Positions 10,794-56,181 of a stretch of 58,989 bases of DNA are shown here, in pieces. The notes below the pieces were generated by a model, which saw nothing but the letters and a program-made list of their open reading frames with translations, did not search any database and had not been told where the DNA came from. The stretch covers positions 1 through 58,989 of the forward strand of contig JBMCVZ010000001.1 in the NCBI GenBank assembly GCA_048621695.1, written 5' to 3'. How positions within the stretch are numbered: the stretch's first letter is position 1; each line of letters starts with the position of its first letter. Source of the stretch: Chloroflexota bacterium (GTDB lineage: Bacteria > Chloroflexota > Dehalococcoidia > GIF9 > AB-539-J10). Position numbers and translations under genes: made by a program.

Positions 10794-11165
10794 GTCATTG
10801 CGAGCCCTTCGTCTCTTGTCATTCTGAGTGTAGGGAAGAATCTTACTCCGCTCAGGGTAAACTCCGCGTGGCAATCTCATGTCCTTGACAGCCCCACCGG
10901 GATTGCTTCGGCACTGTCGTGCCTTGCAAAGACATGAAGTGGAGATTGCTTCGTCGGATAGGTCGGGACTCGCAATGGCGGAGCGGGGTGTCATTCTCAA
11001 CCGAAGCCCTGAGCGTAGCGAAAGGGCGGCGAAGAATCTAACTCCGCTCAGGCCTGCCCTGAGCCCAGTCGAAGGGGTAAGCTCCGCGAGGAATCCTTCG
11101 CATAGCTCAGAACGGTGTGTAGAGATTCTTCGTCATCCTGATGTATCGGGACTCCTCACAATGAC
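10794..11165. repeat. Cluster of REP/MITE-like short repeats (families A and B) in both orientations
   Basis: Family A units follow GTCATTGCGAG-N-CGAAGCAATCTC, and family B units follow GTCATTCTGAG...GAAGAATCT(T/A)ACTCCGCTCAGG. A units lie at 10901-10934 and 10943-10980, with an inverted unit at 11122-11165. A two-copy composite lies at 10818-10878 and 10989-11095. Confidence 0.8.
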
Positions 11166-11231
11166 ATTGCTAAGCGCTCCTTTTTGAGCTTCTGCTGGGA
11201 AAAGGTGGCGCTGTGATAGAATATCAGAGGG

Positions 11232-12224
11232 ATGCTCTACATTCTTTACGGTCGGGACGATTTCTCTCTAAATCAAGCTGTGGAGAAAATCAAAGTTAAC
11301 CTGGGCGACCGGGAAACGGTGGCGACCAACACCACCAGCTTAGAGGGAAAGAACCTAAATTTAAGTGAACTTAGAAATAAATGTAATGTTGCTCCTTTCT
11401 TATCTTCACATCGCCTGGTCATAGTTGATGGCTTATTAGGGCGCTTTGAGGTAAAGCCAGGTAAGCCACGGTCTGGCAGAAGCAAATCTAAAAATGGGCT
11501 GGGGGAATGGGAAGGTCTGGCTTCATACATCGGGCAAATGCCGGAAACAACTATGCTTATCTTGGTTGATGAGGAGGTGATGGGCCATAATCCTCTATTG
11601 AAGAAGCTTTCACCGTTAGCTGAAGTAAAAACCTTCCCTTTGTTGAAGGGCAAGGAATTGAAGGCCTGGGTGCGACAAAGGGTAAAGGAAGAAGGCGGCG
11701 ATATTACTCCCCAGGCCGTGAACTTGCTCGCTGAACTCATAGGTGGAGACTTATGGGCGATGAATGGTGAAATCCAGAAACTACTTCTTTATAGCCAGAA
11801 GCGCCCTATCAGCGAAGATGATGTTAGACAACTGGTAAGTCATGTCCAGGAGGCCAACATCTTTGCTCTGGTGGATGCAGTGGCTGAAGGGCGGACCGAG
11901 TTAGCCCAGCTGATACTGCATCGGCTGTACGATGACGGTGTAGCACCAACCTATATCCTGGTCATGATTACCAGACAATTCCGCTTGATAGCTCAAGCCA
12001 GAGACTTGGGAAAGGGTCTGTCCCGCCTGCAGATTCAGGATAGGTTGGGGTTGAAACAAAGCTATGTTGTAGATAAAACCCTTAGCCAGGCAAAGCTATA
12101 TGATTTTGAGGGCATAAAACGGGCTTATGACAAGCTTTTGGAAACCGACTTAGCCATTAAAACTGGCAAATATAGCGATAAATTAGCTCTAGAGCTCCTG
12201 GTAACCGAACTTGCCTGCCTATAA
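11232..12224 (+). CDS. holA: DNA polymerase III delta subunit
   Basis: The call rests on the 330 aa length, the N-terminus MLYILYGRDDFSLNQAVEKIK, and the C-terminal helical domain pattern of HolA. Confidence 0.75.
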   Translation: MLYILYGRDDFSLNQAVEKIKVNLGDRETVATNTTSLEGKNLNLSELRNKCNVAPFLSSHRLVIVDGLLGRFEVKPGKPRSGRSKSKNGLGEWEGLASYIGQMPETTMLILVDEEVMGHNPLLKKLSPLAEVKTFPLLKGKELKAWVRQRVKEEGGDITPQAVNLLAELIGGDLWAMNGEIQKLLLYSQKRPISEDDVRQLVSHVQEANIFALVDAVAEGRTELAQLILHRLYDDGVAPTYILVMITRQFRLIAQARDLGKGLSRLQIQDRLGLKQSYVVDKTLSQAKLYDFEGIKRAYDKLLETDLAIKTGKYSDKLALELLVTELACL

Positions 12225-12225
12225 T

Positions 12226-12304
12226 TCTCTCTCCTGGTGGGAGAGAGTTAGAGAGAGGGGGAAATTGACCCTCACCCAGACCCTCTCCCTTCGAGGGAGA
12301 GGGC
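12226..12304. repeat. Family C repeat (two GA/CT-rich hairpins)
   Basis: It contains TCTCTCC-tggtg-GGAGAGA and CCCTCTCCC-ttcga-GGGAGAGGG (12281-12303). A near-identical copy lies at 56031-56069. A reverse-oriented copy lies inside tsaD (54443-54497). Confidence 0.8.
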
Positions 12305-12547
12305 TTTATGCGAAGAGTGAAAGTCCTGAGCCCTATTGCTGTCACACTGAATTGACTGTCACTATACTTCAACCATTCATATGTGATTTGCTGAACACTT
12401 TGGCCACGGCACAGATGTTGCAAAGCCAATCTGAACGAGTCAATAAGCTGAGGTTTGATTTTTTACTTATCTCACAGCATACTGAAGCAGAAAAGGGTGT
12501 GTGGCAGTGAAGCGAGATTTGAAACTTAGTTTGGAGGTGGTGTTAAT

Positions 12548-24218: not shown

Positions 24219-24271
24219 GTCACCCTGAGCAATATCGAAGGGTCTAGGTTCTTCGCTACACTCAGAATGAC
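24219..24271. repeat. Family B palindromic element in the acsE-cdhD spacer
   Basis: The sequence is GTCACCCTGAG-N31-CTCAGAATGAC. Its termini are imperfect inverted copies of the GTCATTCTGAG word seen at 10818 and 10989. Confidence 0.7.
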
Positions 24272-24315
24272 AGGCGGGTTGTTGAATAACCTTGGAAAGT
24301 CAAGGAGGGTAATAA

Positions 24316-52900: not shown

Positions 52901-54063
52901 ATATCTATGTGCTTGTCGCTCTAATTCTCATACTTGGATTTATACTCGGCAAGATATTACGCAAACTACGTTTAACAGAAATTCTAGCATATATCCTCGC
53001 GGGTATTATCATAGGACAGGTTCTGAATTTCACCCCACCCGAACAATTCACTACCATTATCACCGGAGTCACACTTGCTCTTGTAGCCTACATAATAGGA
53101 CTGAGTTTCTCCTTCATTTTTCTAAAAAGAATGGGAAAGCAACTGGTCATCATATTGATTGTGCAGGTGTTCATGACTTTTATTGCGACATTGGCTTTTG
53201 TGTATCTATTAACGAGAGATCTCCCGCTTTCCATCATTTTGGGTTCGCTTGCTCCTGCCACTGCTCCGGCAGGAACAATAGCAGTTTTCAGGGATTTAAG
53301 GGCAAAGGGAACACTTACGGACCTGACTATTGCTCTTGTGGGACTGGATGACGCGCTTGTCATACTTATTTATTCTGTGGGGATTCGGTTGACAAAGATG
53401 TCATTGGGCGCAGAGGCAAGCACTTCCTTCTCCTTTGCTAACCCATTATGGGAAATTTTTGGTGGCTTGGCACTGGGAGCGGCAATTGGAGTTGCTATTT
53501 CCTACGTCATGAAGAAAATACATCTCTCTTCTGACAATATCTTCCTTATTTCTATCGCGGCTGCTATTCTCTGTTGGGGTCTTGCGGAAATGATTGGAGT
53601 TTCGGCAATTCTCACATGTATGGCCTTAGGAACCGCCGTGATTAACCTAAATGTCCAAATCGGCAATCGCTCAAACGAATTAGTAGATAATATCATGACG
53701 CCGGTATTTGTTTTATTTTTCGCTGTTATTGGTATGCAGATGGAATTCTCACTTTTTACTCTCATGTGGCCGCTTATAATCGTGTATGTTGTTGGTAGAA
53801 GTATTGGCAAGATAGCAGGGTGTAGCCTTGGAGCTGCCATATCAAGGTCTGAGCCAAAAATTAAGAAATATCTTGGCCTTGCCATGCTAGATCAAGCAGG
53901 TGTCGCCATGGGTCTTGCTTTCCTGGCAGCTCAAGCATTATCAGGGTATGAACTCGGAGGCACAATAATCACACTTATGGCGACCACAACGGTAGTTCAT
54001 GGACTCATTGCACCGCCTCTAATACAATATGCTGTTAGGAAGGCAGGAGAAGGACGTATATAG
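52897..54063 (+). CDS. Cation:proton antiporter (CPA family Na+/H+ or K+/H+ exchanger)
   Basis: It has about 11-12 TM helices and resembles the Na_H_exchanger family (LRLTEILAYILAGIIIGQ, LGSLAPATAP...). The length is 388 aa. Confidence 0.75.
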   Translation: MNIYVLVALILILGFILGKILRKLRLTEILAYILAGIIIGQVLNFTPPEQFTTIITGVTLALVAYIIGLSFSFIFLKRMGKQLVIILIVQVFMTFIATLAFVYLLTRDLPLSIILGSLAPATAPAGTIAVFRDLRAKGTLTDLTIALVGLDDALVILIYSVGIRLTKMSLGAEASTSFSFANPLWEIFGGLALGAAIGVAISYVMKKIHLSSDNIFLISIAAAILCWGLAEMIGVSAILTCMALGTAVINLNVQIGNRSNELVDNIMTPVFVLFFAVIGMQMEFSLFTLMWPLIIVYVVGRSIGKIAGCSLGAAISRSEPKIKKYLGLAMLDQAGVAMGLAFLAAQALSGYELGGTIITLMATTTVVHGLIAPPLIQYAVRKAGEGRI

Positions 54064-54069
54064 TAGTCC

Positions 54070-55086
54070 ATGAAAATCCTGGGTATTGAAACCTCCTGTG
54101 ATGAAACTGCTGCTGCCGTAGTGGAGAACGGCAGCAAAGTTATCTCCGATGTTGTATCTTCACAGATAGACATTCATGCTCGCTATGGCGGCGTAGTCCC
54201 CGAGGTCGCCTCAAGGCAGCACCTCCTCGCTATTATCCCTGTTATCAGCCAGGCAATGACCGAAGTCTCCTGGCAGGATATCGATGGTATTGCTGTGACT
54301 TTCGGCCCGGGGCTGGCCGGGTCGCTGTTGGTCGGTGTTAATGTGGCCAAGGCAATCGCCTTGGCTAAAAGATTACCTATTACCGGGGTTAACCATCTTG
54401 AGGCACATATCTATGCTAATTGGCTGGATTTCTCACTTGAGTCCTCTCCCTCGACGGGAGAGGGAACGGTGAGGGTGAATTGCAAAGTGAAATTCCCCTG
54501 CCTCTGCCTCGTTGTCTCCGGTGGACACAGCGATTTAGTATTGATGAAGGGACATGGGCAATTTGAGAAATTGGGACGGACCCGGGATGACGCTGCTGGC
54601 GAAGCCTTTGACAAAGCGGCTAGAATCCTGGGCCTGGGCTACCCCGGGGGTCCAGCTATTGAACAGGCAGGTCTCTCTGGAATCCCTTGCTTGCCTCTCC
54701 CCCGAGCCTGGCTCAAAGAAAGCCATGATTTCAGCTTCAGCGGCTTGAAAACCGCTTTGTGGCATCTTGTTCACAAAGGAGGAGTCTCAGTGCCTAACGC
54801 TGCAGCAAGCTTCCAGTTGGCTATAGTCGATGTTTTAGTTTCCAAAACAATTGAGGCAGCAAAGCAAATGAAGGCGGAGCAAATTTTGCTGAGCGGTGGG
54901 GTGGCAGCCAATGAGACGTTAACTCAACATTTCCTTGACAATTCGCCAGTCCCGGTTCTTATTCCCCCTCCTCGTTTATGTACAGATAATGCAGCTATGG
55001 TGGCCGCTTGTGGCTATTACCGCTTCCAGGCTGGCAAGATAAGCGGTTATGACCTGGATGTAATGCCCAGCCTCAGCCTTGGTTAA
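54070..55086 (+). CDS. tsaD: tRNA N6-adenosine threonylcarbamoyltransferase TsaD
   Basis: The motifs are [51 protein letters not shown] and GYPGGPAIE. It contains an in-frame repeat-derived insert (see findings). Confidence 0.92.
54443..54497. repeat. Family C repeat copy lying in frame inside tsaD
   Basis: CCTCTCCCTCGACGGGAGAGGGAACGGTGAGGGTGAATT...ATTCCCC matches the reverse complement of 12250-12304 (CCCTCTCCCTCGAAGGGAGAGGGTCTGGGTGAGGGTCAATTTCCCC). It encodes ..[19 protein letters not shown]... Confidence 0.75.
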
Positions 55087-55173: not shown

Positions 55174-55973
55174 CTTCAAAATGCAAAGATAAAAGTGCAA
55201 AATGACAGAGCAACAGTAAATAGAAAATTGAAATGCAAGAAGCAAAGACAGTGGTAGTAAAAAGAATCCAGAATCCGGTAGCCACCGGGGAAATTTTTTT
55301 AAACGCCGAATTCTGGCTACTAACTACCAGTTTCTAAATTTTCCGGCAGGACTATTTGGCTATTTTCTACTTTATTCAACCGTACTCATTTTGCCTTTGG
55401 ACCCGGGCTGGAAATCCCTTTTCCTAGGACTTGGGGGCTATAGCAGGAAAACCTTTTGAATTTTGACTACTGACTGCTGGTTTCCCGCTTTGGTACTTTT
55501 TGGTGATAGACAGGCTGTAGAGCTTCTATTAACATTTTAATAGGTGTACAAACCTCCCCCTCTTAAGATAGGAGGGGTCAGGTCCCAACTTTGTCGAGAA
55601 TGCTCGATAAAATCGGCCGGAGTTACGAATTCCCCTCTTAAGGTAAGAGGGGTTAGGGGAGTTATGAATTCGTGAAGGAATACTTTCCTTACAGGATAAC
55701 CAGTCTAGGGAGTAACAAATTGGAGAAGGACGGAAAACGCCTCCAGAATCAAGTCGTAACTCTTAAAACGGCAATCGAGGAGGCGATAAGCAAGGGGCAA
55801 AAATCCATGGACGGCCTTAGCGATATTTCAAGGTCCAGGCTGGTTTCCAATAAGGATGTTGTCCTCACCCACATGAACGCAGGTTCGGAGGTTGTCGGCT
55901 AGGTCGACGGCTTTTTGAGCTTACGCCCAGTATTCCTCCCTTACGTCGGAATAGGCTCCGCAATCGCCTTGTT

Positions 55974-56069
55974 GTCATTGCGAGGAGTCCCGATGAATCG
56001 GGACGACGTGGCAATCTCACCTTATAGTTCTCTCTCCCCTGGCGGGAGAGAGTTAGAGTGAGGGGGATT
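55974..56069. repeat. Family A unit (55974-56018) followed by family C unit (56031-56069)
   Basis: GTCATTGCGAGGAGTCCCGATGAATCGGGACGACGTGGCAATCTC is close to the reverse complement of 11122-11165. TCTCTCCCCTGGCGGGAGAGAGTTAGAGTGAGGGGGATT is close to 12226-12264. Confidence 0.8.
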
Positions 56070-56181
56070 TCGTTTGTCATTTGGATTTTGACATTTGAGT
56101 CTTTTCAGTCTTTGCATTTTAACTTGTCATTTTTGTTTTTTGTCTTTGATTTTTAATATCGTTCAGGATTTGATATCACCT

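Follow-up and report, generated by a model that had tools for sequence, protein, structure and literature searches.

The BoxC element, also known as PIT, is said to go back to work by Bachellier in the 1990s and by Hoyne and Maher in 2000. Here, we describe a copy of this element that lies in frame within the tsaD gene (positions 54070 to 55086) of an uncultured Dehalococcoidia bacterium (Chloroflexota), in a stretch of 58,989 nucleotides from the forward strand of contig JBMCVZ010000001.1 (GenBank assembly GCA_048621695.1), which we refer to as the window. The BoxC repeat of Escherichia coli was rediscovered as a "potential intrastrand triplex" (PIT) element and named TM_ECO (Holder et al. 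2015, NAR 43:10126, PMC4666352). By definition, such a G/C-rich intrastrand triplex motif (TM) consists of a pyrimidine block, a complementary purine block, and a G-rich third block of 6 to 15 nucleotides (nt) each, separated by loops of 1 to 6 nt, and the third block is the potential triplex-forming strand (PMC4666352). In E. coli K-12, the copies are "always located intergenically," types A and B are often paired in inverted orientation, and small deletions and mutations make TM loci locally more variable (PMC4666352). An isolated TM single strand folds into a stable triplex, while triplex formation in vivo was not demonstrated; the element has no promoter or terminator activity and no transposase nearby, and purine-motif triplexes do not form in RNA (PMC4666352). 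Another of the closest known systems comprises the Rickettsia palindromic elements (RPE), which are palindromic repeats found in frame in unrelated genes (Ogata et al. 2000 Science 290:347 and 2002 Genome Res 12:808, reviewed in PMC10969869).

We found that the tsaD reading frame of the window encodes a whole TsaD protein (375.5 bits against NCBIfam TIGR03723 across the whole protein, cut-off 296.1), and alignment showed that the invariant residues H109, H113, S150 to G152, and H153 are present, with H109, H113, and H153 as metal ligands. This is the only full tsaD match in the assembly, a metagenome-assembled genome (MAG) of 750 kb in 85 contigs that is 58% complete and has a GC content of 47%; the other match, on contig C53, is weak (30.5 bits) and covers query residues 47 to 116. 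Between two conserved blocks of the gene, positions 54442 to 54479 form a full copy of a dispersed repeat, CCTCTCCC-TCGAC-GGGAGAGG-GAAC-GGTGAGGGTGAA, with a core at 54443 to 54475 that reads CCTCTCCC / TCGAC / GGGAGAGG / GAAC / GGTGAGGG. The features of the gene and the repeat are as follows.

54070..55086, + strand: tsaD coding sequence, 338 amino acids (open reading frame and TIGR03723 profile match)
54427..54492, + strand: variable loop-coding segment, residues D120 to K141, between the conserved ANWL and FPCLCL blocks
54430..54441, + strand: decayed left arm TTCTCACTTGAG (from comparison of long alleles)
54443..54450, + strand: pyrimidine block CCTCTCCC, left hairpin stem
54451..54455, + strand: hairpin loop TCGAC
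54456..54463, + strand: purine block GGGAGAGG, right hairpin stem
54464..54467, + strand: second loop or spacer GAAC
54468..54479, + strand: G-rich third block GGTGAGGG with TGAA (arranged as in Table 1 of PMC4666352)
54480..54492, + strand: TTGCAAAGTGAAA, in which TTGCAAA belongs to the long allele and GTGAAA is host sequence (V-K) common to short alleles

The core at 54443 to 54475 contains the three blocks and the loops of the TM definition, and the tsaD copy shares 30 of 34 aligned bases with E. coli TM_ECO no. 2; a further copy in this genome, on contig C9, matches an E. coli TM copy at 34 of 35 positions. The tsaD element is a BoxC/PIT/TM repeat and thus belongs to a family that has already been described. 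The two hosts share the architecture (CCCTCTCCC, loop, GGGAGAGGG, loop, GGGTGAGGG), a multicopy and dispersed distribution with two subtypes paired in inverted orientation, the lack of a nearby transposase, and loci that are locally unstable and variable in length. They differ in siting: all 23 copies in E. coli K-12 are intergenic, whereas here about a quarter to a third of the good copies lie in frame in conserved genes. Intergenic location describes the E. coli copies and is not part of the family definition; in-frame siting is the departure of the present case. Further differences are the host, an uncultured anaerobic Chloroflexota genus with assemblies of 1 to 2.6 Mb, and the occurrence here of double-armed copies, in which the third block flanks one hairpin on both sides. 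A search of Rfam returned no match for the tsaD element, and we found no literature on BoxC/TM or repetitive extragenic palindromic (REP) sequences inside Dehalococcoidia genes.

[quoted passage not shown] Like the REP sequences of REP/RAYT systems (REPtrons), the TM elements are short dispersed palindromes in a genome with a RAYT-like Y1 transposase gene; unlike them, they have no GTAG head. The lone RAYT-like gene (C28:3057-3374, 132 amino acids; 66.6 bits with NF047646, under its cut-off of 80) lies between copies of a different repeat (GTAGTTGC...hairpin repeats), and the only TM copy in its vicinity is degenerate (nhmmer E=9.9e-5) and 74 nt away. A Y1_Tnp match of any kind occurs in just 17 of 52 genomes of the genus. 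The flanking repeats of the RAYT-like gene (G000 C28:2940-3540) carry GTAG heads and form hairpins on both sides (GTAGTTGCCCAATTTATTGGGCA / GTAGTTGCCTGATTTATCAGGC), and the unit looks like a classical REP-RAYT arrangement that is separate from the TM family. MITEs (ERIC, Correia/NEMIS, and cyanobacterial elements; PMC10969869) are likewise small nonautonomous repeats that are occasionally translated within proteins, but the TM element appears to lack terminal inverted repeats in the MITE sense. In addition, no target-site duplication was seen in the few pairs of filled and empty sites examined (in the PmbA-like and adenine deaminase genes described below), and at the adenine deaminase site, host bases were partly replaced.

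The relationship between the tsaD copy and the dispersed family was assessed with an nhmmer profile made from 14 other copies in this genome, the tsaD copy being excluded. A whole-genome search with this profile recovered C1:54441-54481 (+) with E=4e-9 and 35.5 bits, a significant match to the other copies. This bears out the original observation that a copy of an intergenic repeat is embedded in frame in a loop of tsaD, in an open frame between intact conserved blocks. At E <= 4e-9, there were 16 profile matches in this genome. A hairpin pattern with at most one mismatch occurred 13 times in the 750-kb assembly (reversed control, 0) and between 0 and 41 times in each of 52 species genomes of the genus (control, 0 to 1), and the family is multicopy in 49 of these 52. 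The exact hairpin was present in 100 of 301 sampled genomes of the phylum, with up to 51 copies and a nearly empty control. The window holds the following additional copies.

12261..12307, - strand: intergenic copy from the family of the tsaD element (nhmmer E=4.8e-13)
12222..12262, + strand: sister-subfamily copy TCTCTCTCC-TGGTG-GGAGAGAG-TTAG-AGAGAGGGGGAAA, tail to tail with the copy at 12261-12307
56026..56072, + strand: sister-subfamily intergenic copy CTCTCCCCTGGCGGGAGAG ... AGTGAGGGGGA (nhmmer 17 bits, E=0.0024)

A repeat search paired 54440-54464 with 12281-12305 at 92% complementarity. The longer match first proposed, of 54443-54497 to 12250-12304, holds for the repeat itself; its last word, ATTCCCC (54491-54497), falls on host V-K-F-P codons that all orthologs have and must be removed from it. 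Similarly, the copy first placed at 56031-56069 is related to the tsaD element, but it belongs to the sister subfamily and not to the same one. Inverted pairs of the two subtypes occur at 12222-12307 of the window and on contigs C8:12197 and C11:16206.

Comparison with orthologs revealed that the tsaD segment is an insertion relative to outgroups. The spacing from ANWL to FPCLCL is 66 nt here, 33 to 39 nt in most of the genus, and 18 to 21 nt in sister families (measured in 9 species from 4 other families of the same order). A 66-nt loop, which we refer to as the long allele, was found in eight species, this genome included, or in 8 of the 45 full-length tsaD genes among the species genomes of the genus; each near-complete genome that carries the long allele has a single tsaD. 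The TsaD of Thermotoga maritima (6N9A/6NAK) aligned end to end by phmmer (E=3e-80) with a single gap, of 16 residues, precisely at the insert, and the loop is 15 to 16 residues longer than in T. maritima TsaD and the sister families. Distant orthologs thus lack the loop; together with the significant profile match, this decides both refutation tests set by the sequence-only reading in favor of that reading. The long allele exceeds the outgroup loop by 45 to 48 nt, a difference that matches the size of a double-armed element (45 to 47 nt).

When the insert was mapped onto an AlphaFold2 model of this TsaD (42 homologs; overall predicted local distance difference test [pLDDT] score of 93.5, predicted template modeling score of 0.91), it fell in a low-confidence coil. 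Residues 119 to 143 were modeled as coil, between the helix that contains the HxxxH ligands (109 to 118) and the strand at 144 to 149; the mean pLDDT was 55 to 61 over residues 121 to 140 and dropped below 50 at residues 125 to 128 and 132 to 134. The residues that a 2026 cryo-electron microscopy study names as metal and tRNA ligands in T. maritima TsaD (His109, His113, His137, Asp158, Lys166, Arg169, Ser208, Gly211, Lys213, and Asp296; PMC13276492) all fall outside the inserted loop.

The long alleles also revealed a more complete form of the element. In six of the seven other long-allele species, the left arm, which is decayed here, reads CCCTCACCTGAA (CCATCACCTGAA in one) and is an inverted copy of the third block, so that left arm and third block together form a double-armed palindrome. 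The double-armed sequence of these six species is CCCTCACC-TGAAT-CCTCTCCC-TTGAA-GGGAGAGG-GAAyG-GTGAGGG; in G061, one of the six, the left arm is CCATCACC. Double-armed copies of 45 to 47 nt were found at seven other places in the genus. The hairpin loop varies among the long alleles (TCGAC, TTGAA, GTTCA, and GCCAA). RNA folding placed a 9-bp stem (8 Watson-Crick pairs and one G.U pair) at 54442-54464 with z = -2.05 (DNA fold, z = -2.5), in agreement with the 9-bp hairpin read from the letters. At 54468-54502, the third block and its tail GGTGAGGGTGAATT are predicted to pair with the downstream host codons AAATTCCCCTGCC in a second hairpin. This host site resembles the C-rich inverted partner GGGTGAATTTCCCCCTC of composite intergenic copies, a resemblance that may reflect a homology-guided target or a coincidence.

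The hairpin stems are more conserved than their surroundings. In the eight long alleles, the stems are invariant at 13 of 16 columns, versus 18 of 50 for the other columns of the loop, and five of the six third-codon positions in the stems are invariant versus 18% of the four-fold sites elsewhere in the gene (binomial P=0.0009). We infer that the stems are kept either by structural constraint or by conversion from other copies.

Collectively, these data are best explained by a BoxC/TM copy in tsaD that is read as a tolerated, disordered surface loop, and we hold this reading to be highly probable. At some time in the history of this Dehalococcoidia genus, a TM element would have been copied into the loop-coding part of tsaD, between the helix with the HxxxH ligands and the strand that opens the second ASKHA subdomain. 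Because the insert adds a number of nucleotides divisible by three and its frame contains no stop, the element would be translated, as a Ser/Pro/Gly/Glu-rich disordered surface peptide (approximately S125 to N137), and TsaD would stay intact. The event would be one instance of a general habit of the genus, in which the TM family and a second, unrelated family enter loops and linkers of many housekeeping genes and selection keeps only frame-preserving copies in permissive loops. Spread would be by copy and paste without a transposase of the element's own, for example through template switching, gap repair at stalled forks, or short-patch conversion.

Consistent with such a habit, at least five of the 16 strong copies in this genome lie in frame in conserved genes, and of 30 perfect copies in the near-complete relatives G057 and G004, 7 lie inside genes. 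A genome-wide count with a search for other in-frame copies, proposed along with the original observation, thus yielded both. The copies outside tsaD are as follows.

C13:6407-7777, this genome: PmbA-like metalloprotease, 54-nt in-frame insert with the element in opposite orientation, ..SSPSPDLSRQGRGT..
C6:6207-7934, this genome: adenine deaminase (TIGR01178, 604 bits), in-frame element ..KIPLPRRERLGEGE..
C33, this genome: DUF1015 protein, two element copies
G057/G004: SecA (wing/scaffold domain), CarA (interdomain linker), and a PyrK-like subunit
G057/G004: the AroK-AroB linker, adenine deaminase, and a 709-amino-acid open reading frame without a Pfam match; possibly the RecG N terminus

The PmbA-like insert is unique to this genome and absent from all orthologs compared, 13 from the genus and 10 from outgroups (0/23), and it is thus a recent event in this lineage; no target duplication was visible at it. 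The adenine deaminase site is filled in five species of the genus and empty in three others and in the outgroup, while the remaining species hold a different repeat there, tgtcattgcgagcgaagcgaagcaatctc (SLRAKRSNL), or decayed remains. The adenine deaminase frame is open only because the hairpin loop is TCGAN; the common TTGAC would give TGA. DUF1015 orthologs carry assorted repeat-derived inserts at three loops, and the outgroup lacks them. The in-frame copies use three frames and both orientations, as would be expected if elements insert and only those that leave an open frame in a permissive loop are retained; this pattern has been described for RPE (Ogata et al. 2000 and 2002, reviewed in PMC10969869).

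Several further observations concern these genes. In L241 (G057:C9:48219-51252), a reverse-orientation TM copy forms a 13-residue junction between shikimate kinase and 3-dehydroquinate synthase in one open frame; this copy may have joined two genes, or an existing linker may have received it. In the adenine deaminase of G001 (L169), the element is split by a 27-nt piece of another repeat (EPVLSLSKD). Genes of the genus also contain, in frame, copies of a second family of dispersed repeats, tgtcattgcgag...gcgaagcaatctc, which often has an inner hairpin. Its copies in the window are at 55973-56008 and 11131-11166 (inverted pair I1) and at 10817-10843 and 24246-24272 (I5). Its translation is VIASEAKQS or SLRAKRSNL in DUF1015 orthologs and SLRAKRSNL in adenine deaminase orthologs (loci L174-L180 and L137-L147), and its adenine deaminase site is the very one at which other species have the triplex motif.

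These copies invite comparison with RPE. In both systems, short palindromes lie in frame in unrelated housekeeping genes (here TsaD, adenine deaminase, PmbA-like, DUF1015, SecA, CarA, and PyrK-like), the extra peptides are compatible with fold and function, and presence varies between related species. RPE are, however, approximately 100 to 150 bp long, versus 35 to 47 nt for the present elements, and their hosts are obligate intracellular alphaproteobacteria; we claim no sequence relation. RPE peptides are also described as conserved, whereas three frames and both orientations are used here. The TM copies behave analogously to RPE without membership in the RPE families.

We then considered the distribution and history of the long allele, which rest on MAG data and single-gene trees. 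Among the 120 closest 90%-identity protein clusters in a collection of 5.8 billion proteins, 64 had the long loop and 56 had a short one, in a sample that favors long alleles because the loop adds to the score. The 64 long-loop clusters, which come from JGI, ENA, NCBI, and Logan assemblies, comprise 58 with 22 amino acids, two with 18 amino acids and no left arm, one with 23 amino acids, and three with 32 amino acids. The three 32-amino-acid clusters (P0032, P0042, and P0094) have a further 10-amino-acid insert nested in the hairpin loop, e.g., ..SSPSTCSPYDSGRRAGEGT.. With carriers in eight species genomes and 64 clusters, the insert is not strain specific, as had been thought possible. Pairwise identity among the eight species-level loops is 67 to 95%, between the third-position and whole-gene identities of their carriers, and the allele is therefore old. 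A recent horizontal sweep was rejected, since the loops are no closer to each other than the carrier genes are. No imported tract was found around the long loops in four sister pairs, in which both 60-nt flanks of the loop continue to cluster with the short-allele sister and not with other long alleles. The four long/short sister pairs, all strongly supported, are this genome and G010 (98/92), G017 and G013 (100/100), G054 and G059 (95/86), and G058 and G047 (95/90). In a tree of the 120 proteins, the allele state is strongly clustered, with 7 changes versus 40 for shuffled labels, and well-supported branches force just one change.

Loop lengths across the genus are 33, 36, 39, 42, 54, and 66 nt, plus a frameshifted 41 nt in G060, and this hypervariability is consistent, by analogy, with the local instability reported for E. 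coli TM motifs. In G060 (L037, G060:C4:18838-19826), the 41-nt loop results in a frameshift with a TGA inside the variable loop, which points either to misassembly at a mixed or hairpin site or to a gene that is broken. We also considered the short allele (SSPPGEKGR) as a decayed element and found no support for this, the profile score being at most 2.5 bits despite a likeness by eye to the sister subfamily. A species tree from the gene upstream of tsaD was abandoned because synteny is too patchy. That gene encodes a 388-amino-acid membrane protein and is separated from tsaD by 6 nt between reading frames here (window 54061-54069); in relatives that keep this neighbor, the gap is approximately 160 to 180 nt (loci L002, L004, L006, and others), and many relatives have no such neighbor.

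Several points weigh against a tolerated TM insertion as the full account. No signature of insertion (target duplication or transposase) was found, and the route of spreading is conjecture. In a maximum-likelihood codon tree with the loop removed, the long allele requires at least seven changes, and a single origin was rejected on the loop-masked gene tree (approximately unbiased [AU] test, p=3.7e-7; delta lnL [log-likelihood] 235). The short alleles share CCACCTGGCGAAAAG (PPGEK), which is not derivable from the long form by deletion, and the long alleles resemble each other outside the element core. A single insertion followed by losses does not fit cleanly, and neither do many insertions; the pattern may reflect conversion of very short patches between species that co-occur, recurrent insertion of a double-armed element at one hot spot, or sorting of an old polymorphism. 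A second, insert-free tsaD elsewhere in this genome is formally conceivable, given a MAG that is 58% complete. The loop-bearing TsaD is presumed to be active. Finally, the conservation of synonymous sites in the stems also fits a function, in which case "merely tolerated" would be wrong.

This last point leads to the strongest alternative, namely, that the insert was exapted and is kept for a function of the peptide (contact with a partner or tRNA) or of the nucleic acid, where it may act as a translational pause between the ASKHA subdomains, affect mRNA stability, or serve as a recombination or mutation hot spot that varies the loop. In its favor, the stems have hardly varied across a divergence that altered 82% of four-fold sites, 64 of the 120 closest clusters retain the long allele, and a hairpin that is predicted to be stable as RNA lies exactly at the subdomain boundary. 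However, gene conversion by the many other copies could give equal conservation, and most of the genus and all outgroups do without the insert. The third block and hairpin loop drift freely, the element of one lineage (L005) has decayed below profile detection, and the peptide is without structure in the AlphaFold2 model. The properties of the E. coli element, with neither promoter or terminator activity nor a stable triplex in vivo, and the failure of purine-motif triplexes to form in RNA also argue against a nucleic acid function (PMC4666352). We consider exaptation unlikely. The sequence-only reading had left the choice as "tolerated or exapted"; tolerance is supported by a low-pLDDT coil in a confident fold with intact motifs, and exaptation has so far found no support. 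The loop is probably neutral or tolerated rather than useful.

An assembly artefact, in which the repeat was mis-stitched into the tsaD contig of a metagenome bin, is very improbable. Repeats and hairpins are classic sources of misassembly, and the G060 frameshift falls in exactly this loop, but the frame here is open, the flanks are collinear with orthologs, and the long loop recurs at the same codon, each time with its own substitutions, in eight species genomes and in dozens of independently made assemblies from four sources. The reverse direction, in which the loop is ancestral low-complexity protein sequence that the intergenic copies resemble by chance, has in its favor the low-complexity blocks (C/T and G/A runs) and the presence of TCCTCTCC and GGGAGA-like words in short alleles, but it can be all but dismissed on the genome-wide profile match (E=4e-9), the register of three blocks and both spacers with the E. 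coli repeat, the lack of the segment in outgroups, the fresh insertion in the PmbA-like gene of this genome only, and the failure of the profile to recognize any short allele (<=2.5 bits).

A TM copy read as a tolerated loop of TsaD brings together two observations that have been held apart. BoxC/TM is among the most widely conserved short bacterial repeats and has hitherto been treated as intergenic, while in-frame coding palindromes have been regarded as mainly a peculiarity of Rickettsia; here, TsaD, SecA, CarA, and other core enzymes of a free-living Chloroflexota genus with small genomes contain translated TM sequence. The repeat is known; what is new is its siting and frequency in core genes, with fresh and ancient cases side by side. 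Fresh insertions and pairs of filled and empty sister sites provide natural material on how such repeats move and how old proteins gain new surface loops, and the same material bears on whether hairpin- and triplex-prone sequence is tolerated or used in an essential reading frame. There is also a warning for annotation and MAG phylogenetics, as repeat-derived loops are homoplastic and can mislead alignments. More tentatively, TM repeats may be active, transposase-independent "loop makers" that place new copies in coding DNA again and again in Dehalococcoidia, and perhaps also in further phyla that have them, an idea that we regard as possible but still doubtful. If it is true, selection or biased conversion would preserve the hairpin even within essential genes, and the elements would create hot spots at which sister species come to differ by gained, exchanged, or lost segments in protein loops. 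Alongside the Rickettsia coding palindromes, they would then be a second such system, one that spans phyla, and the motif's extreme conservation would have an explanation that is independent of function.

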